IMG/VR virus record: IMGVR_UViG_3300027690_000119
Span: 1,622-65,621 of that record
From: a virus
Reading direction: 5' to 3' (one strand)
Length of the DNA stretch: 64,000 nucleotides
The notes beneath the pieces were generated by a model. The model did no database searches. It was not told the origin of the DNA and saw nothing but the letters and a program-made list of their open reading frames with translations. Of the stretch, positions 27,347 to 52,267 are shown one piece after another. A program made the position numbers and the translations under genes. Position 1 is the first letter of the stretch. The number at the start of each line of letters is the position of its first letter.

Positions 27347-27379
27347 GATCAGTCTCCTTTGATGGGTGATCCCGGACAC

Positions 27380-27460
27380 AAAAAAAGGCCGGGATGGAGG
27401 ATGTGGCCTCCATACCGGCCTTTTTTTCCTTACACGCTCAGGGGATCAGCCCGGCGTGCG
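27380..27460 (-). promoter_or_regulatory. Late-operon leader motif, copy B (before tail operon)
   Basis: CACGC/GCGUG hairpin with CUGAUC loop, A-tract, GGCCG-GU-AUGGAG-GCCACAUC-CUCCAU-CC-CGGCC, U7. Confidence 0.75.
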
Positions 27461-27479
27461 CCCAAGGTATTGGTTGGTG

Positions 27480-28727
27480 TTAAATCACCTTTCCGTTCCT
27501 CATCACTTCAATCGTGGCCTCATCGCTGATTCCCACTGAATCATTGTCAGGCCCCGAGTAAAAACTGGTCAAAACCTGAAAGTCCCCGTCCCGCTGTCGG
27601 TAGAGTGCAGCCCCTTCACTGCCGGGCGCGAACTTCACCTTCCCCTGCGACAGGTTGAATATCCTGCCCGCCGGATTCCCGGCCACGAATCCCTCCTGGC
27701 TCACCCACACGGGCACGCTCACGTGCTTTTTCTCGGGCGGGGATATCGTATCTCCCAGCTCGATAATGTTGTTGGCATATACGAGGGTTCCGGGAATGGC
27801 CCCACTGCCCACGTCCAACTGCCGCATCTGTGAGGGTTCCGTGCCCAACAGGCAATAGGTGCGATCATCGCACCCGATAAAGAGTCCGGTTCGCATCCGG
27901 GCGATCATCGTTCCGGGTGTGGCGAACTCAAAACGGTTGGTTCCCAATTTGAACCAATCCAAATGAAACGGCTCCGAGTAATAGAGGATGTTGTCTCGCA
28001 TCCCCCACATGCGCCCGAACGCATGACAGAGATAATCCATATATGGGGGTTGGTTCACAAACAGGGTGGGCAAAGGCTCCACGGTCGGGACATGGGTAAT
28101 GGCGTCCACGTCGCCGATGCGATAGAAGATGTGGTCGTTCGGGTCCGTACACCAGACCATGGTATTCGCCGACCGGTTGGTTACGCTGATCCCGCCCGAG
28201 CTTGTCAGTTCGATGCCGGCAATGGGTGAACTTCCGCTCAGGTTGGGGGTGTTGTCATAGGAGGTAAGGCAGACATAATAGACGCCAGGCTCCAGGCCCC
28301 CGGTCGTGGCCGTCAGAACCGGGCCGTTGGGTATGGGAAGGCCCCAATCGCCGAGGGAATTGGTGGCCGGGTTGAATATGCGGTTGGCGTATCGGTTGCT
28401 GATGTAGACCAGGTGGCCCACTTCAGCGTACCAGGTGCGGGCCTTGATCCCGCCGATGTCGCCTATGGTCATAGCGGTGCGGCCAAGAACGCGCTTCAGC
28501 GTCGTTCCGTCCATGACCAGGTGACAGGTGGCCCCGGCCCATTCCGAATGTCCATCCTCCAAATCAATGATCTTGGTGTATCCGTCCCGGCACTCGATCC
28601 TTCCCTTGGCCGTCACATCCGCATTCAGCACGATCCTGGGCTCCACAACGCCCCGGTCCACAAACAGCCCTTCCGTGGACTTGACGTTGTTCATCCCGGT
28701 AAAGCGATCCATCCGAATAGGCTTCAT
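27480..28727 (-). CDS. Tail tubular/DNA-stabilisation (nozzle-like) protein
   Basis: 415 aa; beta-propeller-like; FTGMNN start, GRMWG, LYYSEPF motifs; position after adaptor. Confidence 0.7.
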   Translation of the reverse strand: MKPIRMDRFTGMNNVKSTEGLFVDRGVVEPRIVLNADVTAKGRIECRDGYTKIIDLEDGHSEWAGATCHLVMDGTTLKRVLGRTAMTIGDIGGIKARTWYAEVGHLVYISNRYANRIFNPATNSLGDWGLPIPNGPVLTATTGGLEPGVYYVCLTSYDNTPNLSGSSPIAGIELTSSGGISVTNRSANTMVWCTDPNDHIFYRIGDVDAITHVPTVEPLPTLFVNQPPYMDYLCHAFGRMWGMRDNILYYSEPFHLDWFKLGTNRFEFATPGTMIARMRTGLFIGCDDRTYCLLGTEPSQMRQLDVGSGAIPGTLVYANNIIELGDTISPPEKKHVSVPVWVSQEGFVAGNPAGRIFNLSQGKVKFAPGSEGAALYRQRDGDFQVLTSFYSGPDNDSVGISDEATIEVMRNGKVI

Positions 28728-28800
28728 TTCTGCTCCCCCCCCCTGCTCCCCGCTTCCTACTCCTTCCGCTCCCCGTTCCGCCTTCCGCGTTCCGCGCTTC

Positions 28801-29697
28801 CTAATACCGCGTACTATACCTCTGTCCCTGCAACCGCCTCAAAGCCGTCTCCCGGTTCACCCGCGCAATCTCGGCCAGATAGAGCTTGTGCAGATTCTCA
28901 AACCGCGACAATCCATCCTCGTAGTCCACATTGAACAGCCAGGCCGCCTCATAGCAGATGGCCCGGCAACTGATGGGTGAAAAACGCCATGAATCGTAGT
29001 CCGAATAGACCGGCGACGGCATGGCCAGGTAGGGCACATAGATCGTGTGCCCGCCCGTCTTTGAGGGTGCATCCAGGTAGACCTCGTAATTGGCCGCCGG
29101 CGTGATCACGTAGGCGTCGCCCTCGGCCCATTCGTCGCTGGTCCCGTTGAACAGGGCGCACACCAAATGCGTGTCGTCCGTCACCTCAAGGACCACGCCG
29201 TCGGACCCGTCCACGGTGTTATGGATGGTGTCCCTGACCTCCACCATGGGTTCAAAGAAGGCCCCCGAATCGTTCAGGATGCACCGGCCCCCGGCCGCCT
29301 CCCCCGCGCTGACGGCCGTGCCCGTGACCATGGCCTGACCGCTTTGCACGTCCCGGACGGCCAGCCTTCCGGGGATGTCCTTGGCCTCCGTATGGTTGGC
29401 TCGGTAGATCTTCTCGAACGAGGAGACACGCGGCCAGTAATCGCCATCCCCGTTGTTGTACTTGGCCAGATAACGGCCCTGCCGGTCCTTGAGATAGAGC
29501 CCGATAAAATTGGCAGGCAGGTTGTAGGCCTGCTGGCCCTCCACTGTGCCGATCTCGGCCATGGCCGTCAGGATCCGGGTCTGTCGTACAAAGTCTATGG
29601 CCGCAGCGTCCAGGCAGTCGTAAAAAAACCGCTTGTCCGATTCCGCAATCCCCCCCAGGGCCTGGACCCCGTAGTTATACAGCGTCTTTCCGTCCAT
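28801..29697 (-). CDS. Head-tail adaptor-like protein
   Basis: 298 aa; AAIDFVRQTRIL...YNLPANFI and AICYEAAW pattern. Confidence 0.6.
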   Translation of the reverse strand: MDGKTLYNYGVQALGGIAESDKRFFYDCLDAAAIDFVRQTRILTAMAEIGTVEGQQAYNLPANFIGLYLKDRQGRYLAKYNNGDGDYWPRVSSFEKIYRANHTEAKDIPGRLAVRDVQSGQAMVTGTAVSAGEAAGGRCILNDSGAFFEPMVEVRDTIHNTVDGSDGVVLEVTDDTHLVCALFNGTSDEWAEGDAYVITPAANYEVYLDAPSKTGGHTIYVPYLAMPSPVYSDYDSWRFSPISCRAICYEAAWLFNVDYEDGLSRFENLHKLYLAEIARVNRETALRRLQGQRYSTRY

Positions 29698-29702
29698 GAT
29701 GG

Positions 29703-29984
29703 CTATACCGTTTTCGCCGTGGCCTTCAGAGCGTCATCGATGGACGTCTTCTTTGTCGGCCCCTGGATCCGAAGCTTCTTGATTTGGACAGTCATCCGCT
29801 TTCCCCTGTCCCATTCATCGGTGTTTTCCGACATCCGCGTAACAGTGCCGATGACGAGCAATAGAACATTGTCATTTACACCCACCTGCTTAAAGCCGTC
29901 CGCGCTGATCTTTGCTTTTTCAGGGATAGACAACTCGCACCTGGGCGGATCTTTTACCGCCCTCACTGCTTCACTTTTCGCCAT
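29703..29984 (-). CDS. Hypothetical phage protein
   Basis: 93 aa ORF in the head operon. Confidence 0.7.
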   Translation of the reverse strand: MAKSEAVRAVKDPPRCELSIPEKAKISADGFKQVGVNDNVLLLVIGTVTRMSENTDEWDRGKRMTVQIKKLRIQGPTKKTSIDDALKATAKTV

Positions 29985-29999
29985 GATGCTTCTCCCGGT

Positions 30000-30161
30000 T
30001 TAAAACTCAATCTCCTCCCGCTTGCCCTCATATTCCGCTTCCCCCGCTACCACCCCACAATGGGGACACCGATCCACCTCTTCGTACATCCGGTCGTCTT
30101 CCATCCAGACCGCCCCGCACCGGTTGCACACCCGTATGGGCAGATCGGCAATATTGCTCAT
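30000..30161 (-). CDS. Small zinc-ribbon protein
   Basis: Manual translation MSNIADLPIRVCNRCG...RCPHCG..., 53 aa, GGAG RBS. Confidence 0.6.
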   Translation of the reverse strand: MSNIADLPIRVCNRCGAVWMEDDRMYEEVDRCPHCGVVAGEAEYEGKREEIEF

Positions 30162-30195
30162 GGATTATCTCCGTTGATCCGACTGATGAGACCGA

Positions 30196-30804
30196 TCAGA
30201 AGCTCTCCGCCACGTCCTCGATCGTTACCGTGCTTTCAGCCCCTTCCGCGCTCCCCGCTCCGACTTCCGCGTTCCCTTCCTCTTCCTCCTTCACCTCCAC
30301 GATCTGATACTCAAACCCGGCAATAGAGATCTGGTCGGCAAAGCCCCACCAGTCCGGCCGCCCCGAAAATCCGTACTCCGGCCAAGTGGCGGGTTCAGAC
30401 CAGTCGGCCTTTTTCTTTTTCCCATCCGCAGCCTTGGGCCTGCGCAGATACGTCATGCCGTCCAAATCGCTCGACTCGCCGTCCACGGCCGGAAGTCCTT
30501 CCAACTGCCGGGCCTCCTCCGCCTCTTGCAGGCGCTTATAATGAGCGGTTGACATCTTCTCGCCCACACGGTCCCACCATGCCAGGGCCAGTTTCCGCTG
30601 ATTCGCGGCCCCGATAATGTTCAGTTCCTCTTTCTTTTGCACCGGAGATCCATCCTTGTACCCGTACACGCCATTGGCGTGCAGATAGATCTGCCGTCCG
30701 TCCGACTCCTGCCACGACCGGAGCACGCTCACCGCCTTGAGTCCCGTGGTCCCGTCCGGCTTCTTCACCTTGACAAACAGTTTCTGCGCCATAAATACCC
30801 CCAA
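30196..30804 (-). CDS. Hypothetical phage protein
   Basis: 202 aa; C-terminus contains a heptamer-repeat-encoded segment (GNAEVGAGSAE). Confidence 0.7.
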   Translation of the reverse strand: MGVFMAQKLFVKVKKPDGTTGLKAVSVLRSWQESDGRQIYLHANGVYGYKDGSPVQKKEELNIIGAANQRKLALAWWDRVGEKMSTAHYKRLQEAEEARQLEGLPAVDGESSDLDGMTYLRRPKAADGKKKKADWSEPATWPEYGFSGRPDWWGFADQISIAGFEYQIVEVKEEEEGNAEVGAGSAEGAESTVTIEDVAESF

Positions 30805-30818
30805 GCAATTAATAAGTA

Positions 30819-30893
30819 AGAGTGAATAGTGAATAAGGAGACTGTGTTTTTCCTCAACTATTCACTTTTCACTATTCACTTCTCACTGTTCAC
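30819..30893. repeat. Inverted heptamer array (GTGAATA/TATTCAC) forming an intergenic hairpin
   Basis: AGTGAATAGTGAATA followed by CTATTCACTTTTCACTATTCACTTCTCACTGTTCAC. Confidence 0.75.
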
Positions 30894-30897
30894 TTTC

Positions 30898-31479
30898 CTA
30901 CTCTCCCACAAACAACATCCGCAACGTTGTGGCAGCCGGCGTGACTGCCGGATCCAGCTCGGCCAATCCCGCAGCCTCAACCGCCGCGCCCGCAAATGTG
31001 GGCTGGCTCACCGTGCCCGCCGGGGTCCCGCCGCTGGTCTCGCTCGATGTGAGTGTCCCGCCGCCCGTGGCCTCCAGGTGGTCCGTGTTGAGCGTCACTG
31101 CGTTCCCGCCCGTGCCATCCGCCACCGTATGAGCGTGGCTATGCACTGCCAGGGCCTCCCCGGTAAAGACGGGCTGGCTCACCGTGCCCGCCGGAGTAAA
31201 TCCCGCCGACGTAAAAATCTTGATCTTGTGATTCTCCCGGTCGTACCTGTATTCATACCCGTCCCCGGGCGGCTGCTCGATCAATCCGATGCCCATCTCC
31301 CGTTGAAGACCGAAGTGGCCGATATGCGGCAGGGGAATCCCTCCGCTGGGATAGGTGAGGATGCCGTCTCCGAACCGGATCACGGCCACCCCCATACATT
31401 TGCTCAATGCCCCGTGACCGATATCCCTGTCCCTGGGATTGACGGTCACCCAGACATCCGTACTTGCTAATGCTGTCAT
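30898..31479 (-). CDS. Head fibre/decoration-like protein
   Basis: 193 aa; TPAGTVSQP(V/T)F repeated twice. Confidence 0.65.
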   Translation of the reverse strand: MTALASTDVWVTVNPRDRDIGHGALSKCMGVAVIRFGDGILTYPSGGIPLPHIGHFGLQREMGIGLIEQPPGDGYEYRYDRENHKIKIFTSAGFTPAGTVSQPVFTGEALAVHSHAHTVADGTGGNAVTLNTDHLEATGGGTLTSSETSGGTPAGTVSQPTFAGAAVEAAGLAELDPAVTPAATTLRMLFVGE

Positions 31480-31596
31480 GTTGTGTCCTCCCGTTTAGGC
31501 AGGGAGCAGGGAGTCCCGCCGATGGCGGGATTGAGACCCCGCGCTCCGTGCTCCATGCTCCTTGCCGATTTCTCCGCGTTCCGCGCTCCCCGCTCA

Positions 31597-32058
31597 TTAC
31601 GCCGTTTCCACCAGGTTGCTCAAATTGGCCTTGGTTTCGGGCATGACCTCGACCAGGAGATCAGGCCTGAAATGACCCGCCTTATTGTCCCCGGTCGCAG
31701 GTACGGCCAGCTTTACAACCACTTCGTCTCCCGGTTCCAGAACCGTTCCCAGTGACGCCTCGTCATAGAGCACCTTACCGGCGCCGGTGGTGCCCATGAC
31801 GAAATGGGCAATATCCGCGGCCCCACGGCCAACATCGGACCCGAGCATCGGCCGCAGCTCGTAATCCACTTCCGGCGTTGTGGTGTCACCCCCGCACTCT
31901 TCGGTGACATTGAGTTGAGACCGCACCACTTGGCACTTGAAGGGCACGTGAAACACCCCCACGTCCGCTTCAGCCTGGTCGCAATCCACACCCAGGGGGT
32001 CGTCGTAATCGACAAACAAATCCAGCGGCAGGGAAGTCAAAAGATCGCTTCGTAACAT
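31597..32058 (-). CDS. Capsid decoration/cement-like protein
   Basis: 153 aa, directly downstream of the major capsid gene. Confidence 0.55.
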   Translation of the reverse strand: MLRSDLLTSLPLDLFVDYDDPLGVDCDQAEADVGVFHVPFKCQVVRSQLNVTEECGGDTTTPEVDYELRPMLGSDVGRGAADIAHFVMGTTGAGKVLYDEASLGTVLEPGDEVVVKLAVPATGDNKAGHFRPDLLVEVMPETKANLSNLVETA

Positions 32059-32129
32059 GGTGTTATCCTCCTGATTGGGTTGTGATCAGACAGATCGGCC
32101 GATCCGGCCGATCCGGCCGATCCTGTTGT

Positions 32130-33101
32130 TTACTGGCTGGCTATCCGCACGATCCGCGCCTCGCGGTCCGTGGCGGTCGGGAACTTCACGCCATAGGCCA
32201 CGGTCCCGTACCAGGCCACCGCATGCCGCCGCCCGAAGTCGGCCACATAATTGGGTTGCGCCCGAAGGTGCGGAAATTCGATCTCGATCCGGGCCACCGC
32301 ATCCTTGCCGAAGATCACCCCTTCACCCAGGACATTGCCGCTCCCCACGGAATTGCTGAGGGCCGACTCGTTGTTGACCTCCATCATGCGCACGCTCTCG
32401 ACCTGTCCAATCTCTCCCCGGTAGATGTGGTCCCCCTTGCGGAGGTACATGTTCCAGGCCTCGATCACCCGGTCATCCCGCAGCCCGCGCAACGCCTTGG
32501 TGCTCATGAGCCCGATATAGTGCTCGCCCTCGTAATAGGGGACGTGCAGGTCCTTGTTCATGTAGTCGCGGATGGTGGAGACGTGGTGCTTGGTGAGGTT
32601 GACCAGAGCCATAGTGGACGGGGTCCCGTCCGTGTCCCAGACACCGCCGGTGAGGCTGGTGGGGATAAAGATCACCTTGGCGTCCGCCCCTGTAAACTCC
32701 GAGGCCGCGGCCACGTCCATGGCCTGGTTCATCTGGTCGATCAGGCCCTCCTGTGCCCCCTGCTTGGGGTCGAATTTACTGAGCTGCCGCGCCAGGTCGG
32801 TGTACTCCAGGCCCCGTCCCCATTCCTTGATGGTGATCTCCGATTTTCCCATGGTGAGCTGATCGATGGGGATCCGGGTGGTCTCCTCCAGCTCCGCAGA
32901 AGCGGGGTCGCTCAAGGGCTTGTAATAAATGAGCGTGATGCTCTCCCCCTTGCCCTTGCCGAACGAATCCTCCTTCTTGGTGAACGGCACAAATTTCCAC
33001 TGCCGGGCCGCCACCTTCAAGAGTTGCCCTGACAGGTGATGATTCTTGTAAACGCCCGTCTGGGCGTCGTAAGTCCAGGTAAATGTCGCTTCGGTTGGCA
33101 T
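32130..33101 (-). CDS. Major capsid protein (N4-gp56-like)
   Basis: 323 aa; GKGKGESITL, ITIKEWG, GEIGQVESVRMME, DFGR motifs; follows scaffold. Confidence 0.85.
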   Translation of the reverse strand: MPTEATFTWTYDAQTGVYKNHHLSGQLLKVAARQWKFVPFTKKEDSFGKGKGESITLIYYKPLSDPASAELEETTRIPIDQLTMGKSEITIKEWGRGLEYTDLARQLSKFDPKQGAQEGLIDQMNQAMDVAAASEFTGADAKVIFIPTSLTGGVWDTDGTPSTMALVNLTKHHVSTIRDYMNKDLHVPYYEGEHYIGLMSTKALRGLRDDRVIEAWNMYLRKGDHIYRGEIGQVESVRMMEVNNESALSNSVGSGNVLGEGVIFGKDAVARIEIEFPHLRAQPNYVADFGRRHAVAWYGTVAYGVKFPTATDREARIVRIASQ

Positions 33102-33181
33102 TGCTTATTTCCTCCGTTGGCGGGGAGCAGGGGCAGGGGGCATGGAGTTGGTTTCCGCGCTCCGCGCTCCTCGCTCCGCGC

Positions 33182-34261
33182 TTATAATCGCCGCTCCTCC
33201 ATGGCATCCTCAAGGGCGTCATTCAGGGTCACCACCTTGGGTGCCGGGGGTTTCCCAGCGCTCCGGTCCGCCGGGGACCGGCCCAAAGGGAGGCTTTTTT
33301 CCTGATGGGCTTCACTCTGCCTTTCCGCCTCTTTCTTAAGGCGCTCCTGGAAGCGCTGCTCCTGTTTTTTGTGATATTCCCTGGTGGCCTCGATGGCCCA
33401 TTGAACCTGATCGTCAAAGGAAAGGGCCTGTCCGTCCGGCCCCTGGCTCGGGGCATAGGTGCAAATCATCCGAAAATAGTCGTCTTCCGGATCGATCTTT
33501 GCGTTCCTGGCCGCCTCTTCCGCCATGGCCCAGGCCGCAGCAGGGTCTTCCGCGCTCCCCGCTCCGCCTTCCGCGTTCCGCGTTCCGAGTTCCGCGCTCC
33601 CCGCTTCCAGCTCCCTCCGCTTGACCTCAATAGCCGCGTCCTTCTCGGCCCACACCCGGGCCACCCGCTTTCGATAGTCCTCAGCGTCCGGATCCAACTC
33701 GTCGATTTTGTCCAAGGCCTGCTCGTGTTGCTCGGCCATAAAATCCACCAGATTCCGGTCCCGCTCTTCCTGTTCCTTCCGCTGTTGTTCCGCATCCTGG
33801 GCCGTCTTGAGTTCAGCCCGCAGCCGGGCGGCCTCCTGCTCGGCCCGCGTCTTGGCGGCCTGCAAATGCCGGTATCCTTCTTCGGCCTCCGTATGGTCCT
33901 TGAAACGAAACCGCGGCTTCTCCTCTTCCGCGCTTTGCGCACTGCCTTCCGCGCTCCGCTTTCCGCCTTCCGCGTTCAAAGGCGCTTCCCCTTCCTTGGG
34001 TTCCGCCCCTTCCTTCTCCGTCTTCGGTCTTTCGTCTCCGACTTCCGACTTCCGACTTCCGACTTCCGCGCTCACTCCCGGAGGGCTGTCATCTGCACCA
34101 TCGGAATCCGGGGTAATGGCTTTCTCTTCCGAGCTCCGTGCTCCTTGCTCCGAGCTCAAATCTTCCCGGGCCGCCTCTTCGAGTTCTCCCTGGAATCGCG
34201 CCATGCCCTCATCCATAATCTGATCCAGATCCAGCGTGGTCTCCCCTGCTTGTGTTCCCAT
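33182..34261 (-). CDS. Scaffolding protein
   Basis: 359 aa, acidic, coiled; FKDHTEAEEGYRHLQ; between portal and capsid; contains several heptamer-derived inserts. Confidence 0.75.
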   Translation of the reverse strand: MGTQAGETTLDLDQIMDEGMARFQGELEEAAREDLSSEQGARSSEEKAITPDSDGADDSPPGVSAEVGSRKSEVGDERPKTEKEGAEPKEGEAPLNAEGGKRSAEGSAQSAEEEKPRFRFKDHTEAEEGYRHLQAAKTRAEQEAARLRAELKTAQDAEQQRKEQEERDRNLVDFMAEQHEQALDKIDELDPDAEDYRKRVARVWAEKDAAIEVKRRELEAGSAELGTRNAEGGAGSAEDPAAAWAMAEEAARNAKIDPEDDYFRMICTYAPSQGPDGQALSFDDQVQWAIEATREYHKKQEQRFQERLKKEAERQSEAHQEKSLPLGRSPADRSAGKPPAPKVVTLNDALEDAMEERRL

Positions 34262-34316
34262 AAAATTCCTTTCCTTCCGCGTTCCGCCTTCCGCGTTCCG
34301 CTCTCAAGTGGGGCAT

Positions 34317-34400
34317 AAAAAAAGGCCGACATGGAGTGTATGGCCTCCATACCGGCCTTTTTTCGTAGCCTTGGGGTGATCAAGCCCCTCAGCCGCCCCG
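34317..34400 (-). promoter_or_regulatory. Late-operon leader motif, copy A (before scaffold/capsid operon)
   Basis: GGGG/CCCC hairpin with CUUGAUCA loop, A6, GGCCG-GU-AUGGAG-GCCAUACA-CUCCAU-GU-CGGCC, U7. Confidence 0.75.
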
Positions 34401-34430
34401 TCTTTTAGTCGATCGGTCCGATCAGCCCGA

Positions 34431-34775
34431 TCAGCCCGATCCGTTTAATCTCTTTATTCCCCCCATATGCGCCTGATACAATTTATCCACGGCCTGCTTG
34501 GCCGCATTAAACCGGTGCCCCATATCTGCAATGATCTTCTGGTACCCGGAGGCCTCCGGATCGTCGCGGATCAACTCCAGGACTCTGGCAATCAGCCGCT
34601 TTTCCACCAGGCCCCGAAACCGGGCGCCCTCATCGGAAAACCCCAGGGCCAGGTCCTCAGCCCTTGCCCGCAGCTCGGCCTCGGTCTGCGCCCGCTTCCG
34701 CTCCCGATCCGCCTGGCCGCCGTCCAATACCTTGGGCCGCCGTGTCACAATGTCGATGCTCGCTCCCGGTTCCAT
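34431..34775 (-). CDS. Hypothetical phage protein
   Basis: 114 aa helical ORF after the portal. Confidence 0.65.
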   Translation of the reverse strand: MEPGASIDIVTRRPKVLDGGQADRERKRAQTEAELRARAEDLALGFSDEGARFRGLVEKRLIARVLELIRDDPEASGYQKIIADMGHRFNAAKQAVDKLYQAHMGGIKRLNGSG

Positions 34776-34849
34776 CAGACCACCCCCTAAAGAATTTTCT
34801 CACACAGAGCCCACAGGGCCACAGAGGTTTAAATTAGCAGAAAACCTTT

Positions 34850-35032
34850 TCACCTTCTCTGTAGTTTCAAAATGAGCTTTTTCGGGCTGATAGCGTGTAT
34901 TTTGAACGTGCTCCCCTTTAATTCAACAATTTCACCAACTCGGAAAACCCCAGAATCCGTGGGCCACTTTTTTTCAGCTTGTTCAAAGATATCTTTTGGT
35001 ATCTCGGCGAAATACCCATTCCCTGTATCCAT
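34850..35032 (-). CDS. AT-rich small cargo gene flanked by inverted 9-mer arrays
   Basis: 60 aa; AAGGAG RBS adjoining the repeat at 35046-35072; inverted copy at 34799-34827. Confidence 0.7.
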   Translation of the reverse strand: MDTGNGYFAEIPKDIFEQAEKKWPTDSGVFRVGEIVELKGSTFKIHAISPKKLILKLQRR

Positions 35033-35085
35033 TTATGGCTCCTTTCTCTGTGTCTCTGTGCCTCTGTGTGAGATATGCCCTTGTC

Positions 35086-35190
35086 CCGACTTCCGCGCTC
35101 TCTACTCCCCACTCCCTGCCCCTTGCTCTTTGCTCTTTGCCCCATGCTCCCTACTGCCTACTCCCTACTCCCTGCTCCCTGCTCTCTCCT
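35086..35190. repeat. Heptamer tandem array (CTCCCTG/CTCTTTG/CTCCCTA variants)
   Basis: More than ten degenerate 7-nt units at the portal 3' end. Confidence 0.8.
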
Positions 35191-37063
35191 CCCCGCCCGG
35201 CCCTTCCACCGCAGCCACCAAGTCCGCCATCTCCTTCACCTCTGCCACATTCCGATCCGCGTTCGCCTGATCCTCGGCCTGGGCCGCCCGGGCCTGGTTA
35301 TCCTTGTCGATCGCCTTGGCCTCGTCCTCTGTCACGATCACCCCTTCATCGTTCAGGTTCACCCGCTCCACAACCGCCGTCAATGTCTTATAGGCCCGGA
35401 TATACCGCCCAAACGGCGCCTTTTCAGCCAGCGGAATAATGATTTCCTGCAACGCCTTCAGGGCCTCGTTTTCCTTCATCAGGGCCTGGATGCCCGAGAC
35501 ATGAAATGTCCCATCGAATGCCGGCACGCCCGACACGCCGTTAGGCGCCTGGGGGTTGGGCGCCAGCCCGTATTCCACTAACTCTTCCGGACTGAATATC
35601 CCGGCATAATCCTGATATCCCGCATGGGTCTGAATAATCTCCAGGCCCGCCATGATCGCCTCCACGGCCCCGGCCTCGATGTTCTCGCCCATTAAGGAAT
35701 AGACCCCCATGGCCTGATCCAACAGCATGGCCGATTCCCGGTAGGTCATGTCCTGCCGGTATCCAGGCAGGCCCTGGACTGCATCCGTGACAAACGACCC
35801 CCGTTGAAACTGCTGGTCCCGGTACTGCATCCCGGCCAGCACGTCATTGGTCCGGCTCCGGCGGTCCACGGTCCGCACGGCCTGCTGTCCGCTGATGGTA
35901 TCCTTTACCGCATAGTTCTTGCCCGGCCAGCCCTCCACATCGTTGGGATCCACCAGGGCGTCCACGTTCACTTCCGTCATGGGATTGACCACCCACTGGA
36001 GATAGTCCTGGTCCAGGCACATGATATTGTTCATGGCCTCCCAGATCGAGAGGACCCCTTCCAACAGGCCCCGGCCTCCAAAGGCCAGGAGGTTGGGCAG
36101 GGGCGAAAACGCAATCCCCGGCCACCGCAGCCGTTGGTAGGGCACGGCCCGGGGCATCTGGATCACCCGGCCCCCGGCCACGGTGTAGGTGGCCCTGGGC
36201 AGCAGGACCTCCCCTTTCGGATCCAGCACAATCCCCCAGAACTCCGATGTCAGGATCAAGGTTCGGAATTGGGACCGCTGCCATATCATTTCCTTGCGGG
36301 CTGCAATGGCCTCTTTGGTCATCAGGGGATTTTCCGGGTCCTCGTCGGTGACCTCCTTGACCCGGGCCACGTCAACATACCGCTCCGCCTTCTCGCCCTG
36401 CTTCAGCACAAAATAGTCGAGCCATTCCTGGTGAACCCAGAAGATCCCGGACTGGCAGTCCCGGTTGAGGGCATCCGGATCACGGTGGATCTTCCACGGC
36501 TCGATCAGGGTGTATTCCAGGCCCTTGCCCGGAACCCACCGGGGAACCATCTCCAGGGAGACGCCCACGGCCAGGGCCATGGTCACCGCATCCGTGAACC
36601 GGATGGGGAAATTGGCGTGCGATTTATTCAGATGCCGCTCCATCACCTTCTGATGAAACGCTGCGGCCCTCTTATTGACCGCGTTTTCCACACTCAGAAA
36701 ATTGGGCGAAAAGGCCTTTTTAACGGCCGCGGCCCCGTACTGGACCGTCTGAAAGGGTTTGGGCACCACAATCCGCGACTGCCACTCCTCTTTATCCGCA
36801 TAACTGACCGGCTCGTTCTCGTTGTAGACGTTCCAGCAATCGCTCTGAATGCGGCGGATATCCTTCTGCGCCTCGATGGACTGCTTCAAACAGTCCTTGC
36901 AGTAGTCCACAAAATGCTGTTCATTCTCACCCGAATAGGCCCGGGCCGCCTCCTCCCGTTCCTTCAATTCCTGCGGGTCCCGCACCGAATTGGGAGAAAG
37001 CGTATCCATCTCCCGCTTGCGGTTCAACAGCTCGAATGAAGGGTCCGCCATCTGAATGGGCAT
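35165..37063 (-). CDS. Portal protein
   Basis: 632 aa; WQSRIVVPKPFQTV motif; size and position between terminase and scaffold. Confidence 0.85.
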   Translation of the reverse strand: MPIQMADPSFELLNRKREMDTLSPNSVRDPQELKEREEAARAYSGENEQHFVDYCKDCLKQSIEAQKDIRRIQSDCWNVYNENEPVSYADKEEWQSRIVVPKPFQTVQYGAAAVKKAFSPNFLSVENAVNKRAAAFHQKVMERHLNKSHANFPIRFTDAVTMALAVGVSLEMVPRWVPGKGLEYTLIEPWKIHRDPDALNRDCQSGIFWVHQEWLDYFVLKQGEKAERYVDVARVKEVTDEDPENPLMTKEAIAARKEMIWQRSQFRTLILTSEFWGIVLDPKGEVLLPRATYTVAGGRVIQMPRAVPYQRLRWPGIAFSPLPNLLAFGGRGLLEGVLSIWEAMNNIMCLDQDYLQWVVNPMTEVNVDALVDPNDVEGWPGKNYAVKDTISGQQAVRTVDRRSRTNDVLAGMQYRDQQFQRGSFVTDAVQGLPGYRQDMTYRESAMLLDQAMGVYSLMGENIEAGAVEAIMAGLEIIQTHAGYQDYAGIFSPEELVEYGLAPNPQAPNGVSGVPAFDGTFHVSGIQALMKENEALKALQEIIIPLAEKAPFGRYIRAYKTLTAVVERVNLNDEGVIVTEDEAKAIDKDNQARAAQAEDQANADRNVAEVKEMADLVAAVEGPGGEERAGSRE

Positions 37064-37074
37064 GGGTTGCTCCG

Positions 37075-37440
37075 TTATCCCTCGGGCTTTTTGGCCTCAT
37101 CGGGCGTCTTGGATGTGCTGCTATTCAACTGCCTCAACGCCATATAAAGAGTCCCGGCGCTCACGGACCATCTATACGTGAAGGTGAGTTCATCTTCACT
37201 GTCAAGGCCAAATTCTGTTTGGTTAAGCATGAGCTTCAGGATCTTTCTCTTTGCGGTTCTCACAAAGAAATCCCGGAGGCAGGCATACACATTGTTCACC
37301 ACGGCCATCTGGTCAGGGATCGGCAACTCAGAAAATCGGAATAACGGCTTACGATCTTCAGGGTTAATAAGGGCGTTGTATTCTCTTATTATGGCGTCAT
37401 CCTTTATCGTCTTTACAGCCTTCTCTTTACGCTTAGCCAT
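37075..37440 (-). CDS. Hypothetical phage protein
   Basis: 121 aa, AT-richer, RBS present. Confidence 0.65.
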   Translation of the reverse strand: MAKRKEKAVKTIKDDAIIREYNALINPEDRKPLFRFSELPIPDQMAVVNNVYACLRDFFVRTAKRKILKLMLNQTEFGLDSEDELTFTYRWSVSAGTLYMALRQLNSSTSKTPDEAKKPEG

Positions 37441-37675
37441 TAGCGACCTCCTTCTTCATCCTCGGCATGGCCTGTATCCGCACGCTGCTTGCAATACGCC
37501 CGCCGCCGATGGTCACCTCGGGAACCATTATGCAATCAAACCGCTGAAGCACGATGTCGATCTCGTTCATACACCGCTTCTCACGCACCCGGTCGTCCCC
37601 CACAATTTCCTTAACCCTCTGCTGCCTGGCCGCCCCCGCCATGGCCGCCTGAAACGGATCCATCGTAGTTGCCAT
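37433..37675 (-). CDS. Hypothetical phage protein
   Basis: 80 aa; GGAGG RBS. Confidence 0.65.
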   Translation of the reverse strand: MATTMDPFQAAMAGAARQQRVKEIVGDDRVREKRCMNEIDIVLQRFDCIMVPEVTIGGGRIASSVRIQAMPRMKKEVANG

Positions 37676-37700
37676 AAACCCTCCTGTGTCATTGTGTAAG

Positions 37701-37775
37701 TGGAGGCGGGGAGGGGAATCGAACCCCCGGTTTCCGGCGTATGAGACCGGCGCCTTACCGCTTGGCTACCCCGCG
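37701..37775 (-). tRNA. Phage-encoded tRNA with CAT anticodon (atypical Met/fMet-like)
   Basis: Cloverleaf; anticodon arm CCGGU-CUCAUAC-GCCGG; TTCGATT T-loop; 3' CCA encoded; C1xC72 mismatch, U73. Confidence 0.85.
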
Positions 37776-37973
37776 CTACGGTTTACTTGTCTTCATCCCC
37801 GTCTGCGGATCGCGCCCCATGCTGATCCGGACCAGCCCGATCAACAGCGTCAGGATATGGTCGTCAATCACCCACCGGGTCTTTTTGGCGACCCATTTCA
37901 GCCCGCCCAAAAAGACCAGGATGATCGGTGCGATCCACCACCAGTTGGCGATGATGACGGTAACGGCGTCCAT
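37776..37973 (-). CDS. Small membrane protein, holin-like
   Basis: 65 aa with two hydrophobic segments and a basic loop. Confidence 0.5.
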   Translation of the reverse strand: MDAVTVIIANWWWIAPIILVFLGGLKWVAKKTRWVIDDHILTLLIGLVRISMGRDPQTGMKTSKP

Positions 37974-37976
37974 TTT

Positions 37977-38165
37977 TTAGTCCTGCTTGTAACCGAAGGC
38001 CCCGTCCGCCATGGCCACGACCCGGTCGTCCCAGATGTTGTCCGGTCTATTGACCTTTTCAATCAGCACATCCCGCAACATGGTCCGATACAGCATATCG
38101 CCCGCCGAAAACCCCATCGATTCAATCGTGCTGACCCCTACATTGGGTGATAATTCATTTGGCAT
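37977..38165 (-). CDS. Small hypothetical protein
   Basis: MPNELSP..., PDNIWDD motif, GGAG RBS. Confidence 0.6.
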   Translation of the reverse strand: MPNELSPNVGVSTIESMGFSAGDMLYRTMLRDVLIEKVNRPDNIWDDRVVAMADGAFGYKQD

Positions 38166-38179
38166 AACCGTTTCTCCTT

Positions 38180-38383
38180 TCATTCTTTATCGATCATTTC
38201 TCGAAATTGCCTGTCCGACTCCCTTGCCGCCTTCAATTTGTCGTCCAACTCATCCCGGCCCCTTTGGCGTCTCTTAGCAATCCGCTCCCACAATCTCGTC
38301 AGGTTCACCTTCCCGCCGATCCGCCAGTGCCCCCGCCGCCTGGCCATGTGCTCATATGCCTCTTGCGTGCCTTCCAAGCTCAC
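38180..38383 (-). CDS. Small basic hypothetical protein
   Basis: 67 aa, overlaps the upstream stop. Confidence 0.55.
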   Translation of the reverse strand: MSLEGTQEAYEHMARRRGHWRIGGKVNLTRLWERIAKRRQRGRDELDDKLKAARESDRQFREMIDKE

Positions 38384-38634
38384 ACCCCAGCCCCCGGACT
38401 CTCCGGGAATATGCGCTCCAAATTCCGCCGATACGCCCCGCTCACCCTTCCGGGAGACCAGTCCGTCTCCCGGCTCCTACATCCCGGATGACAGCGATGC
38501 GGATCCGGTTCGCCATTGTGCCCTTCATCCGGGTAGGTCACGGCCCCGCAGTCCTTGCACTTGAAGACCTGCTCGCCCTCGTCATAAGGACCGCCCTCGG
38601 TCATCTCCCAGTACCGCTCATATCTCCCGCTCAT
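38380..38634 (-). CDS. Small zinc-finger protein
   Basis: CKDCG...HRCHPGC. Confidence 0.6.
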   Translation of the reverse strand: MSGRYERYWEMTEGGPYDEGEQVFKCKDCGAVTYPDEGHNGEPDPHRCHPGCRSRETDWSPGRVSGAYRRNLERIFPESPGAGV

Positions 38635-38673
38635 CCCTTCTTCCCCTTGCTCCTTGCTCCCTGCTCCCTGCCC

Positions 38674-40113
38674 CTACCCCACCGCCCTTCTCCCGTAATT
38701 CCCGCCCCGATAGCTCCGCGCCAGTTTCATTTTCGCCATCTTCTCCTCCAGGCTTGCCTTCTTGCTCTTTCCCTTGACCTGCGTGTACGGAAAGAGCAAG
38801 GCCACGATAGAAGCAAGCGCGTCTCCCGGATGGCTGAACCGGTCCTTGACCGGTAAGGTTCCCACAATGTTTCCGGAATTGTCTGTTTTCCAGTGCCAGC
38901 CGCCGTTGAGGGCGCGATGTAACAAGTAGGCGGACTTTGAAATCAAGATACGGGGAGAGCCATCAGTGGCATCCGTGAGGAGCGAAGTCTTGGTCGGCTG
39001 GATCCGGGCCGACCATGACGTAGGCCCCGGCTCGAATCGGGTGTCCAGCATCCGTTCAATCCGGCGTGCGGCTGTCTCGGTCCGGGTGGACTGGTCCGGG
39101 GTGCGCATGCTGGGGTCGCCGACATCCCGCCAATCCTCAATCTTGTCTTTGTATTTGGGCGAATTGAGAAGGGGCCTCACCTTCTGCTCGATCAGCTCCT
39201 TGACTCCAATGTTTTCATCAAAACAGACGTCGTGGATCCAGAGCTTGCCGGGAGGAATAAACTGGCATACGAGACAACAGGGGTTGTGCCATCCGTCCCA
39301 CCCGCGGATTCCGATACCGCCCCGCACCACCGGCAATATCAGATCCCTGGAAAAGTGTTTGATCGGATTGTATTCGGGCGTGACCTTCTTCCCCCGCTGG
39401 ACCGGCGCGGCCCGTCCCTCGATATACCGGGCCTTTTTCCCCGGGTCCTTCGAAAACGCCGCAATGTGGGCCGCCCGGGCCTGGGGGTTTAGGTGCCGGT
39501 TCTCCCGGTAGGGAATGCGGTACACGGCCAGGTGGATCTCGAAACCGGTCACCGGATCTACGGCCAGCACCTCCGGCCCGCTGGCCATCTCCTCGGTCCA
39601 GTGGTCCTCGTCCGCCGGGTTCTGGGTGATCTGAAGCCGCATCAGGGTCCCCTGCTGCCTGGCGGCCCGGGCCAGGGCCATCTCAAACACCTCGTAAGGA
39701 AGCCCTGCATTGGCCTTTTCAATAATGGGCGCGGGTTCTTCCAGCCAGATGAGGGAATACTGAGGCCCCTGCAATTTGGAAAGAGACGCCTCGTCGTCAA
39801 TACCGAAGAGGTCCATCTCCACCCGGGGCGTGGAATGGATGATCATCACTTTGTTATCGTCATGGAAGGACACACGGGAACCCAACATCTCCTTGATATC
39901 GGGCACCGTGCTGATCTTGATGTTCTGGTGGGTATCTCGAATCAGGGCGCCTCGAATGGGACGGCCGCACCGCGCCGCATGCCGGATCCCGCCGATCACA
40001 CCGGCATAGGTCTTCCCCTCCCCCATGGGACCCATGAGCATGACCACCTCTGCGTCCGAATGCACAAAGGCGTCCTGGGTCGGGGAAAGTTCTACATACC
40101 AGGGATCACCCAT
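38674..40113 (-). CDS. terL: Terminase large subunit
   Basis: GPMGEGKT Walker A, LIWLEE Walker B, GWDG and SHPGDAL RNase H-like motifs. Confidence 0.9.
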   Translation of the reverse strand: MGDPWYVELSPTQDAFVHSDAEVVMLMGPMGEGKTYAGVIGGIRHAARCGRPIRGALIRDTHQNIKISTVPDIKEMLGSRVSFHDDNKVMIIHSTPRVEMDLFGIDDEASLSKLQGPQYSLIWLEEPAPIIEKANAGLPYEVFEMALARAARQQGTLMRLQITQNPADEDHWTEEMASGPEVLAVDPVTGFEIHLAVYRIPYRENRHLNPQARAAHIAAFSKDPGKKARYIEGRAAPVQRGKKVTPEYNPIKHFSRDLILPVVRGGIGIRGWDGWHNPCCLVCQFIPPGKLWIHDVCFDENIGVKELIEQKVRPLLNSPKYKDKIEDWRDVGDPSMRTPDQSTRTETAARRIERMLDTRFEPGPTSWSARIQPTKTSLLTDATDGSPRILISKSAYLLHRALNGGWHWKTDNSGNIVGTLPVKDRFSHPGDALASIVALLFPYTQVKGKSKKASLEEKMAKMKLARSYRGGNYGRRAVG

Positions 40114-40750
40114 CCTTGCCCCCTTTGATCAAAAAGGGTTTGTACTGCCCGTCTCCCTGGGCCGGGGCCTTGCCGCCGGTCCGATCTACAATGTAAATGG
40201 GGCTCTTTCCTTCATCGTCCAACAACCCGGCCTGCCGCAGCTTCAGGTCGATAATCTTGATGGCCGTGTTCATGGCCTTGTCGCGTTGGTTTTGCAGCCG
40301 GTCTTCACGGGCCATCAGCTCCAGGCAGTCCCGGATGATCCGCCTGACCAGCACCCGTTGCCCGTCCGCGTCCCGCTCTTCCAACAGCATATAGCGCCAC
40401 CGATCGATCCATCCGGCAATCTGCTCTGTGGCATCGGCCATCCGCTCTACCCGGTCCTTGCCCGCCTCCCTGGCCCACTCCAGGCATTGCGACTCCATCT
40501 CTTCGAGGGCTTTCAGGTCATCCGGGATCACCTTGTCCACATGATCCCGGATGACTCCAAAGGCCTTACTCTCAGCCTCTTCGCGCACCTTGCTGACGTA
40601 GCGGATAATGGCCGATTCGCTCACATCCAGATCCGGCCGGTCGGTCTTGACCCTTGCCGCGATCCGCCTGGCCGACAATCCTTCTGAGGCCAGCTCCTGG
40701 ATCCACGTATCCAGTCCCATCTGCTCTATCTTCGTCCGCTTATTCGCCAT
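40106..40750 (-). CDS. Terminase small subunit-like HTH protein
   Basis: Start MANKRTKI; GLSARRIAARV...SESAIIRY HTH; overlaps the terL start. Confidence 0.7.
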   Translation of the reverse strand: MANKRTKIEQMGLDTWIQELASEGLSARRIAARVKTDRPDLDVSESAIIRYVSKVREEAESKAFGVIRDHVDKVIPDDLKALEEMESQCLEWAREAGKDRVERMADATEQIAGWIDRWRYMLLEERDADGQRVLVRRIIRDCLELMAREDRLQNQRDKAMNTAIKIIDLKLRQAGLLDDEGKSPIYIVDRTGGKAPAQGDGQYKPFLIKGGKDG

Positions 40751-40813
40751 CTTCCCCCTCGATCCGACCGATCCGTCCAATACCCCTGATCCGACCGATC
40801 TCTTCTCCCCCAC

Positions 40814-40897
40814 AAAAAAAAGCGGCTGCATGGAGAGCATGGCCCCATACAGCCGCTTTAATATCGTTTGCCGCCCCGGTTGATCAGTCCGCTCGGC
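40814..40897 (-). promoter_or_regulatory. Late-operon leader motif, copy C (before terminase operon)
   Basis: GCCG..CGG/CCG..CGGC hairpin with ACUGAUCAA loop; GCGGCU-GUAUGG-GGCCAUGCUCU-CCAUGC-AGCCGC, U8. Confidence 0.7.
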
Positions 40898-41273
40898 TAT
40901 TCAGTTTTCAATTCCGCGTTCCGACTTCCCTGCCCCCTGCTCTTTGCTCCCTGCTCAAAATGTTTCAACAGGCGTCCCGGCTCCCGGGAAAGGAGGCATG
41001 CAAAATGAGAAAACGTGCGATGAGGTTAAAGTCCCGTCGGATGGGTTTCATCAACCCGGTCCCCGGACCGCCTGTTGTGATCCGATCATACCACACGTTT
41101 TTTAACCGCCCGCCCCAAACCGCCTCAAAAAAGCTCTCGACAAAAATTTTGCCATTTATAGCCAAACCTCAAAAATAAAAAATTCGAAAAAAAAGACTTG
41201 ACAAGGGTTTTTTCTCACACAGAGGACACGGAGTCACAGAGGGTTAAATCTTCAGGTTGGGAACCCTTCAGTT

Positions 41274-44863: not shown

Positions 44864-44925
44864 AGCGAACCTCCTTGGATAAGGGTTGGAAGAGATCCGC
44901 CTTCTTTCGCTGTCAAACAAAAAAA

Positions 44926-44999
44926 GGCGGGTTGCACGCGGTTGACAGACCGGCTCCAAGGGGACCGGCGAGCCAGAAGGCTCCCGCGCACAACCCGCC
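44926..44999 (-). ncRNA. C4-like antisense RNA #2
   Basis: Stem GGCGGGUUGUGCGCGG/CCGCGUGCAACCCGCC. Internal CCUUGGA and CUGUCAA are complementary to TTTGACAG/TCCAAGG repeats upstream (45052-45076) and downstream (44873-44918). Confidence 0.8.
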
Positions 45000-45393
45000 A
45001 GAGGGTTCGTACGGACAAAAAAGCGCCGTACGAAATCGAGGCGCTTGCGCACCTTGGAATATGCCGGCTGTCAAACCGGGCCGCGGATTTTGCCGCAACG
45101 TTATTACGCTGGCACATCCCCAAGGGCTTGTCAAGGAAAAAAAATGACTCTGAATCGGAAAACCCGTATCTTGTTCGACGGAGGTTCATCATAGAGCTAC
45201 GCTCACTTTCTTCAAAGTTTCAAAGTCTGACTAAACACAAGTTCATCCAAAGCGGAACAAACAAGCGGGGGCTTAAACTCAACAGATAACATCCTATTCA
45301 CCCCACTATCCCAAACCTCATCTGCCCACTCAATTTTAGTTGCCATAATCCCTCGCTTTATTTCATTTTTTCCCCGCGCTCTGCGTTAAAATG

Positions 45394-51682: not shown

Positions 51683-52267
51683 CTATAACTCGTTCTGATA
51701 TACGTCCCTGATCTCTTCCGGCTGGATGCAAAGGTAATCCAAGGTCTGACGTTGCGAGGAGTGGTTGAAGCACACCATCAACCGGGGAAGATCCACCCCG
51801 AACGTCACCCTCTGATGATATCCCCACGTCTTGCGCAATGTATGGCTGCCATAATTCCCCTTCAGGTTGATCTCCCGGCACCAGCTCTTCACCATGTTGT
51901 TGACAGTGCTCACGGTCAACGGTCCACGTTGGCCCACAAACAGAAAGTCCTGATCGTCTCTATCGTCTGCCGCCAGGAGAGACTGTATCGACCCCACGGC
52001 CGCTCCATTAAGCGTCACCTTGCGTGCCTTCCCGGTCTTTTTTTCCCGAATCTCAATCGTCTCTCCGGCCATCACATGCCGCACCTGGCCTACCCGCAGG
52101 CCCAACAGATCCGAGGCCCGCAGATTGGTGTTGATGCCGAGCACAAAGAGACACAGGTCCCGCGGTTTGTCTGCCAGCAATCGCTTAATGAGCCGGATAT
52201 CCTTCAGATCCCGGATCGGCTCCACCTTGATCACATCCCCCGCCTTCGGATGATTCCCGTTTTTCAT
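51683..52267 (-). CDS. Short tyrosine recombinase (resolvase-like)
   Basis: LRASDLL, HTLRKTWGY, NHSS...TLDY catalytic residues; no arm-binding domain. Confidence 0.9.
   Translation of the reverse strand: MKNGNHPKAGDVIKVEPIRDLKDIRLIKRLLADKPRDLCLFVLGINTNLRASDLLGLRVGQVRHVMAGETIEIREKKTGKARKVTLNGAAVGSIQSLLAADDRDDQDFLFVGQRGPLTVSTVNNMVKSWCREINLKGNYGSHTLRKTWGYHQRVTFGVDLPRLMVCFNHSSQRQTLDYLCIQPEEIRDVYQNEL

Follow-up and report, generated by a model that had tools for sequence, protein, structure and literature searches.

The analysed stretch of DNA (64,000 nt, positions 1,622 to 65,621 of the IMG/VR record IMGVR_UViG_3300027690_000119; hereafter the window) comprises most of a 70.9-kb provirus record. 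Its minus (coding) strand carries three paralogous modules of approximately 100 nt, A (40908-40802), B (34404-34303), and C (27469-27366), which are predicted to be intrinsic terminators with an attached conserved hairpin. The phage spans ~6.4-59.7 kb of the window and ends with an integrase adjoining a tRNA-Ala gene. Nearly all phage genes, early and late, are encoded on the minus strand, and the whole phage has a single transcription direction from ~56.7 kb down to 6.5 kb. The virion genes extend from the small terminase gene (terS; start 40750) to the gene of a 3491-aa polyvalent protein (6490-16965), and PHROGs matches were obtained for the large terminase, a portal-like protein, the major head protein, an Hc3-type head closure protein, and virion and tail proteins. 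Three such elements had been reported in a first-pass annotation, which placed them in front of every late operon. Their coordinates and strand were confirmed and they do mark the packaging, head, and tail borders, but the genes behind them rather form one long co-directional late string. The gaps between U tract and start codon measure 63 (A), 55 (B), and 33 nt (C), differing by at most one nucleotide from the earlier values of 64, 56, and 34 nt.

Three paralogous modules in the late gene string

All modules share one order of parts, consisting of a hairpin P2 whose loop includes GAUC, a linker rich in A, a GC-rich P3 hairpin, and a tract of seven or eight uridines (module, promoter, and gene positions in this section refer to the minus strand). 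In module A, P2 (40870-40897; stem GCCG..CGG / CCG..CGGC) exposes the loop ACUGAUCAA with GAUC at 40885-40882, the linker is reduced to AUAUUAAA, and P3 with its U tract (40814-40856) is composed of a 5' arm (40856-40843), the loop CCAUGCU (40842-40836), a 3' arm (40835-40822), and U8 (40821-40814). Module B (34303-34404) contains P2 (34393-34367) with the loop CUUGAUCA (34384-34377), followed by A6 (34363-34358) and by P3 with a 5' arm (34357-34345), the loop GCCAUACA (34344-34337), a 3' arm (34336-34324), and U7 (34323-34317). Module C (27366-27469), behind which the ATG of the next gene lies at 27346-27344, consists of P2 (27459-27432; loop CUGAUCC, 27449-27443), A7 (~27427-27421), and P3 with a 5' arm (27420-27407), the loop CCACAU (27406-27401), a 3' arm (27400-27387), and U7 (27386-27380). 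The (C/U)UGAUC loop described earlier is present in every copy, as are the terminator stem with its GUAUGG(A/G)GGCCA core and the U7-8 tract, whereas the A tract described alongside them exists in B and C (A6-7) and not in A. P3 comprises 13-14 bp in all three copies with the common core GUAUGGRG / CUCCAU, and the compensation between outer stems was borne out (GCGGCU/AGCCGC in A versus GGCCG/CGGCC in B and C). A feature missed in the first reading is the outer helix P1 (CGGGGC ... GCCCC), which encloses B (5' strand 34400-34395, 3' strand 34314-34310) and, in a weak form, C, closing 2 nt past the U tract.

The P3 hairpins alone fold with -24.8 (A), -21.6 (B), and -23.9 kcal/mol (C), and 101-nt segments containing the modules gave fold z-scores of -3.0, -6.3, and -5.8, respectively. 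Since several pairs are G-U, the sense RNA folds better than the antisense RNA in all three cases (-40.4/-32.0, -52.3/-45.1, and -50.1/-48.1 kcal/mol for A, B, and C). A scan of the window for hairpins followed by U runs identified A, B, and C as the only strong coding-strand sites in the 34-kb late region, and the other clear sites belong to a C4 RNA. The 13-mer GGTATGGAGGCCA occurs without mismatch only in B and C within the 64 kb. All three elements have the anatomy of intrinsic terminators (a GC-rich stem-loop and then a U run in gene direction).

A candidate late promoter (AAAAC-N-TGTG-N-TATGAT, 41085-41101) was newly recognised upstream of A. It is of the extended -10 type, with TG at 41093-41092, the hexamer at 41090-41085, and no -35 element. 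In six phages with TerS proteins 31-72% identical to that of the window, the corresponding block AAAACC-N-GTG-N-TAT(G/A)AT was found 5' of each A-type terminator; the TGn motif is strictly kept, the AAAACC block is conserved just 5' of the TG motif, and a -10-like repeat after the promoter occurs in locus L120 only. Within the window the block has a single match. No comparable promoter was detected within ~600 nt upstream of B or C, and no promoter-like site was found between any module and its gene. Since only 33 nt separate the end of C from the next ATG, too few for a promoter plus a ribosome site, the tail genes need read-through, and expression of the late genes is possible only by transcription through the modules. 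Module A is predicted to be a leader terminator behind a late promoter, in the PR'-leader-tR' layout of phage lambda. The predicted leader RNA (40822-41078; ~265 nt from a start placed by the promoter position to the U tract) holds P2 and a short heptamer array (CGGAACG-like units), and the promoter-to-terminator leaders of the relatives measure ~95-275 nt. An embedded promoter (YTGATC as -35 and GATATT as -10) would fit the 16-17-nt spacing of A-type copies, but was rejected as a general reading because B, C, and D (a fourth copy, described below) have no -10 and the GATC-to-TATGG gap ranges from 26 to 32 nt.

Another conserved block (CCCTTGTCAAG, then T8) is located at 41197-41206, ~105 nt upstream of the promoter block. 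Both blocks are present in all six relatives compared, and the one at 41197-41206 is similar to the -35 region in the promoter of the C4/ant operon (CCTTGACAAG, 45127-45136).

Late block 1, downstream of A (34431-40750), starts with terS and contains the large terminase gene (38674-40113), small open reading frames (ORFs), a tRNA-Met gene, a portal-like gene (35165-37063), and a conserved 114-aa gene (34431-34775). Block 2, downstream of B (27480-34261), encodes a scaffold-like protein (33182-34261), the major capsid protein (32130-33101), head-completion proteins, and the Hc3-like head closure protein (27480-28727), and block 3, downstream of C (6490-27346), contains the tail and ejection genes including that of the 3491-aa polyvalent protein. 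Tandem 9-bp units (GATCGGNCN) occupy late intergenic spaces at 40761-40800, 34411-34441, 32085-32125, and 30170-30200, adjoining A and B and following the capsid gene. Tandem arrays with a period of 7-9 nt flank the terminator modules in every relative and in the window (34262-34300, 40900-40930). Their period is constant and their sequence hypervariable (window, L015, L013, L019, G003, and L095): the letters are phage-specific (CGGAACG/CGGAAGG in the window, CATCTTG in G003, TCTAACC in L095) and even site-specific (GTTTTGA, CAATAGT, and CGAACAT in L015). The tetramer GATC is over-represented 1.8-fold in the window (434 versus 240 expected).

Upstream of the late region, a P1-type C4 antisense RNA and an antirepressor are encoded at 43.6-45.0 kb. 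The C4 RNA (44920-45005; Rfam match of 64 bits) precedes an Ant-type antirepressor, and CCAAGG sequences matching its loop CCUUGGAG are located both upstream and at the ribosome site of the gene that follows (44875-44885, 45055-45062); the two constitute a P1/P7-type immunity system in an integrated podovirus-like phage. Among the early proteins, conservation is highest for a 194-aa member of the tyrosine recombinase family without the N-terminal domain (51683-52267; 74-75% identity to G002/G003), ahead of helicase and primase. At the attachment-site end, a hairpin terminator (59640-59690; GGCCGTCTCGAAAGACGGCC) resembles the DNA-uptake-sequence terminators of Neisseriaceae.

Homologous modules in related phages

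Relatives were collected by a capsid search of IMG/VR, which yielded 13 related loci, and by pattern scans that added L120, L156, L040/L050, and L034. The exact core pattern produced only chance matches in coding DNA of viral contigs, so that a looser pattern was required. Megablast comparison of the 13.7-kb late region with 50,697 phage records yielded no match, and nothing was found when the scaffold protein was compared with species genomes. A capsid profile recovered six contigs from metagenome-assembled genomes (MAGs), with related prophage contigs in MAGs of Desulfosarcina, Deltaproteobacteria, and Planctomycetota. The possibility that the module is a terminator of host type was rejected, as the model was absent from five MAG genomes with related prophage contigs, bar one weak match. 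A covariance model built from the module sequences, a check suggested by the first-pass annotation, recovered homologous modules in the relatives including the A-type copies and the phage G001, with 100.2 bits for B, 85.7 for C, 29-37 for A-type copies, and 31-47 for the G001 copies.

Close relatives (capsid 83-92% identical) carry homologous modules at the same three places. Distant relatives (TerS 31-61%) have a small hairpin and a terminator composed of A tract, hairpin, and U tract at the terS and scaffold positions, but of unrelated sequence, from which it follows that the positions are old and that the particular sequence is specific to a clade. A fourth, diverged copy (D; L015:18630-18719 and L040:5007-5106) precedes a paralogue of the first tail gene (33-34% identical), indicating that the gene and its upstream module were duplicated together. 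D has different stems but retains the U tract and the A-rich linker along with the GGUAUGG arm and the YUGAUC loop, and it raises the number of terminators inside the late string of these relatives to three. Flanking genes of D could not be aligned for an empty-site comparison. Locus L034 proved to be part of the complete 67-kb phage G001, which has no detectable protein in common with the phage studied here and nevertheless carries two P1-P2-P3 modules, one before the portal gene and one before a tail-side block. A 94-aa ORF of G001 (L196:10778-11062, record 50778-51062) with a sub-threshold NrdR-type zinc ribbon stops 33 nt before the GUAUGG-type module, upstream of the portal gene.

The A-type P3 and U tract of the window are 98, 91, and 100% identical to those of L013, G002, and L120, respectively, whereas the first 450 nt of the adjacent terS are only 72, 70, and 74% identical. 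In the B intergenic regions of the window, L013, and L015, conservation starts at the 5' strand of P1 and stops at its 3' strand, and either side of the conserved module is occupied by unrelated short tandem-repeat arrays. By these comparisons the loop and core sequences are conserved beyond structural need. Copies within one genome are also more alike than orthologues: B and C of L015 share 76% of their positions (88% over P3), compared with 56% (67% over P3) for C of L015 and C of the window. The nutL and nutR sites within lambdoid phages show the same pattern of within-genome likeness. Such a pattern fits either recombinational homogenisation or co-evolution with a reader of the copies, and the retention of loop and arm in the old D copy would favour the latter; a G001 copy devoid of both motifs cautions against extending this to all modules.

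RNA folding and the search for binding partners

Unguided RNAalifold prediction from eight B/C-type sequences returned P1, an extended P2, and P3, with compensatory changes in 11 of 27 pairs. The hand-drawn structure has 85% paired cells, compared with 38-66% when the partners are slid, and lies above nearly all shuffles. P2 encloses GAUC in all 14 GAUC-bearing instances, with stems ranging from GGGG/CCCC to CCAAAGAA/UUCUUUGG.

The first-pass annotation had proposed a switch in which GUAUGG of the P3 5' arm pairs alternatively with an adjacent CCAUAC, perfectly so in A. This assignment had to be corrected: the partner is perfect in B, imperfect in A (CCAUGC, with a wobble and a 2-nt spacer), and absent in C (CCACAU). 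In folds from 60-150 nt upstream through the U tract, the pair probability of P3 is 1.000 in A, B, and C, and when the RNA was truncated before the 3' arm, no conserved pairing between upstream sequence and the 5' arm emerged in any of the three. The intermediate formed by the 5' arm and the loop reaches -5 to -8.5 kcal/mol, compared with -18 to -25 kcal/mol for the terminator; its best fold is often GGCC:GGCC instead of GUAUGG:CCAUAC, and it is only marginally better than shuffled loops (fraction 0.02 to 0.5). What stands of the proposal is that terminators lie ahead of late blocks which require read-through, whereas a self-contained attenuator or alternative-fold switch is not supported by these folding models. 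Since P3 is unopposed at equilibrium and no upstream antiterminator exists, any regulation would need a factor acting in trans. A leader-peptide reading, suggested by the AUG in the P3 5' arm that opens short frames in all copies, was discarded because these frames are not conserved in L013 (judged by eye).

The view that the motif lies outside known RNA families held up, as no gathering-level Rfam match was obtained at A, B, or C and permissive scans at A and B gave only chance-level matches (E 0.2-10, far under gathering). No boxA-like motif was found in the module linkers. The sequence GGCCGGUA in P3 loosely resembles the ops core by eye, and the record holds no PF02357 gene. A tRNA-Met gene (CAU; 37701-37775, minus strand) in late block 1 has an anticodon arm complementary to GUAUG and then AGGCC, with one bulge. 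As a T-box-like partner that would pair with the P3 5' arm (10 bp with the bulge) it was rejected, since relatives with the module have no tRNA genes, and the complementarity is probably a coincidence. The C4 antisense RNA was likewise dismissed as a partner: the CCAAGG targeted by its loop belongs to its own operon, and the occurrence of CCAAGG beside P2 in B only is taken as chance.

Three protein candidates were also rejected. A 119-aa gene upstream of the promoter, one of the three between it and the antirepressor, has its closest homologue among chromosomal hydrogenase-maturation genes. A 53-aa Com-like zinc finger (CxxC-16-CxxC; 30000-30161, minus strand) gave generic zinc-ribbon matches only and is located downstream of A and B; this unannotated ORF of the head block is conserved in two relatives, G002 and G003. 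The 3491-aa protein was considered as an N4-like virion RNA polymerase that would use hairpin promoters, and contains methyltransferase, RadC/JAB, and PRTase domains only.

Control of late transcription

The most economical account of these observations is regulated read-through of the leader terminator and the internal terminators by a trans-acting antitermination factor, a reading that, on sequence evidence, we hold to be about evenly balanced between right and wrong. According to this model, the extended -10 sigma-70 promoter upstream of A would yield a short terminated leader RNA unless the polymerase has been made terminator-resistant, and B and C, located in the same gene string where packaging genes give way to head genes and head genes to tail genes, would act as internal terminators. 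In the lysogen, and likewise in the early phase of induction, the three terminators would insulate the virion genes from upstream transcription, and during late expression trans-acting antitermination would carry the polymerase through A, B, and C. The factor might be encoded by the phage or the host, and because G001 shares the module but no proteins with this phage, a host factor is as likely as a phage factor. On the nascent RNA it would read two features, the P2 loop and, in the 5' arm of P3, the GGUAUGG segment, by local nut-like loading at each site and not by one loading at the promoter. P2 accompanies each GUAUGG-core terminator, and the loop and GGUAUGG are constant while the stems change, which suggests such local reading and P2 plus the P3 core as the putative recognition site. 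Both efficient termination in vivo and its regulated read-through are what we infer from this arrangement. A more specific and rather doubtful version is that each late terminator carries its own loading site (YUGAUC loop and GGUAUGG arm) for a sequence-specific RNA-binding antiterminator, possibly a host factor that serves unrelated phages of the same hosts, so that gating would be local at every border; a self-addressed terminator of this kind is not known to have been described before.

The layout is a variant of lambdoid late control, with a module that belongs to no Rfam family. In lambdoid phages, late genes are controlled by the PR' promoter, the 6S leader, the tR' terminator, and the antiterminator Q. 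Descriptions of this layout also exist for Stx phages (PMC7547250) and for a Q21-like factor in BaGTA (bioRxiv 10.1101/2024.11.20.624540). The phage analysed here resembles the lambda system in having a constitutive-looking promoter, a short non-coding leader, and a strong intrinsic terminator directly before the first late gene, as well as further terminators inside the late operon that must be passed. It differs in that no Q-family protein and no clear promoter-proximal pause element were detected, and in that the downstream late terminators of lambda are unrelated to tR', whereas the internal ones here are paralogues with their own conserved-loop hairpin.

P2 also bears some resemblance to the hairpins of the N-nut systems (boxA and a boxB hairpin) of lambda, P22, and phi21: both are small, lie on the nascent RNA 5' of terminators, and combine a variable stem with a loop that is conserved in a phage-specific manner, and in both the copies are alike within a genome but different between phages. 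In contrast to nut sites, which are located near early promoters and act processively, the hairpin described here lies 15-30 nt before each late terminator, has a YUGAUC loop instead of a GNRA-like pentaloop, and is accompanied by neither a boxA-like sequence nor an arginine-rich N-like protein. The early ORFs contained no family match to an arginine-rich N protein, although small peptides with arginine-rich motifs could escape such searches. HK022 put and the EAR element are likewise structured cis-acting RNAs 5' of terminators without a recognisable protein partner, but have no sequence or structural match here, and factor-free resistance of the put type would make the adjacent strong terminators pointless. 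As in the RAT (ribonucleic antiterminator) elements of BglG/SacY/LicT and in ANTAR systems, a hairpin overlapping the terminator 5' arm could be stabilised by a protein to block termination; unlike in those systems, the mini-hairpin is weak and missing from some copies, and no PRD/CAT or ANTAR domain protein was found among the ORFs scanned. Control by RfaH or another NusG paralogue differs in that the record has no NusG-like gene. Repeated intergenic cassettes are also known from other phages, such as the T4-type promoter early stem-loops (PeSLs) and the RNase III R sites of T7. Like these, the modules are sequence-related stem-loops repeated between gene modules with signs of spread and homogenisation in the genome; unlike PeSLs, which pair an early promoter with a stem-loop, they have a promoter at A only, and unlike the U tract-free R sites they end in U tracts.

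Several observations weigh against regulated read-through by a dedicated factor. Six-frame hidden Markov model (HMM) searches of the whole 70.9-kb record with NusG (PF02357), Phage_antitermQ, and Antiterm (PF03589, PF06530) were empty, with no Q-family match (PF03589, PF06530) at E <= 1, and Pfam and PHROGs comparisons of the early ORFs tested provided no candidate for a transcription elongation factor or antiterminator, in agreement with the earlier remark that no Q-like gene is recognisable; the early matches were a helicase, a primase-type zinc finger, a ParB-like protein, the tyrosine recombinase-like protein, and the antirepressor. For the three genes that separate the antirepressor from the late promoter and are not conserved in G002, atlas look-ups were uninformative. 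Neither P2 nor conservation of the P3 core would be required by a Q-like factor that is loaded at the promoter, so that the case for local recognition rests on their conservation, and the similarity of the copies could reflect recent duplication or gene conversion instead of selection. One copy in G001 keeps the architecture and has neither GAUC nor GUAUGG, and these motifs are hence not universal. The covariation is based on ~14 distinct sequences, many of them closely related, and the three runs holding the sequence are all DNA sediment metagenomes and none is RNA.

The main rival is that A, B, and C are constitutive terminators without dedicated antitermination, which as leaky attenuators, insulators, or stabilisers of 3' ends would partition a long late transcript; the likeness of the copies would be due to duplication and gene conversion, and P2 would only shield terminator folding from upstream sequence. 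The unopposed formation of P3 with a probability of ~1.0, the failure to find a regulator, the higher similarity of paralogues within a genome than of orthologues (as gene conversion predicts), and the origin of the D copy together with a duplicated gene all agree with this explanation, and the wholly different terminators at the same positions in distant relatives imply that no particular sequence is needed for the positional function. However, hairpins of -22 to -25 kcal/mol followed by U7-8 are expected to stop most transcripts, and three in series, the second directly before the genes of the scaffold and capsid proteins, which are required in the largest amounts, would starve the head and tail genes. 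Furthermore, P3 is conserved far above the neighbouring coding DNA, and the P2 loop, unneeded in simple terminators, is invariant across diverged copies. We regard plain leaky terminators as rather unlikely, and RNA processing sites, a RAT-like switch, and a DNA-level cassette rank after them.

RNA processing, known from T7 where related R sites lie between genes and are cut by RNase III, would be favoured by pairing of the A tract with the U tract: in RNAfold predictions, this lengthens P3 in B and C, though not in A, to 19-20 uninterrupted pairs, and in L034 to ~24. Closed by P1, which needs sequence past the U tract and hence exists only in read-through RNA, the extended hairpin would form an RNase III-type substrate, and the polycistronic late RNA would be cut into module-sized messages with protective end hairpins. 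Although the elements recur at gene-block borders as expected for such sites, U7-8 directly behind a GC-rich stem is the signature of termination and not of RNase III sites, and A-type copies have neither the A tract nor P1. Processing is improbable as the sole explanation, but it is compatible with termination and could be a second role of the modules.

Even less probable is a RAT-like switch, in which a protein or RNA would stabilise the GUAUGG-NNN-CCAUAC mini-hairpin or another alternative fold and block the pairing of the P3 arms; this mode serves antiterminators of the BglG/SacY/LicT type. The mini-hairpin would be transcribed ahead of the 3' arm, and CCAUAC or CCAUGC is present in the P3 loop of 8 of 12 GUAUGG-core copies (A-D types and G001 copy 2), with other letters in diverged copies (UGUGG/CCACA in G001 copy 1, AUGUGG/CCACAU in the G003 A-type copy). 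Its absence from C of the window and of L015 argues against it as the common mechanism, and in A and L034 the spacer measures only 2 nt. Besides the weakness of the intermediate and the missing protein partners reported above, the outer 5-6 GC pairs beside the U tract could form regardless.

A DNA-level element (a portable cassette, a recombination hotspot for module exchange, or a recombinase site, with an incidental RNA fold) is very improbable despite the ~13-8-13 inverted-repeat geometry of P3, the bounding short inverted repeats of P1, the presence in G001, the location exactly at module borders where the flanking genes of relatives differ, the concerted evolution among copies, and the conservation of the recombinase-like early gene, since G-U pairs make the sense RNA distinctly more stable than the antisense RNA, all copies preserve the U tract and their orientation to transcription, recombination sites in direct repeat would lead to the loss of essential genes, and the flanks are not alignable for a target-site-duplication or empty-site comparison.

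To our knowledge, late gene control has been characterised in detail for only few phage types, represented by lambda Q, P2 Ogr, Mu C, and the RinA family. In the phage described here, which belongs to a temperate, podovirus-like family of sediment bacteria, none of the known regulators was found, and its clear, conserved cis architecture consists of one promoter and three paralogous terminators. If these are plain terminators, they allow the transcription units to be annotated neatly and exemplify how regulatory hairpins evolve in concert within a phage genome. If a new antiterminator docks at the conserved loop and core, these would provide a direct handle for finding that factor, and the module would represent a compact, portable "stop unless licensed" part.

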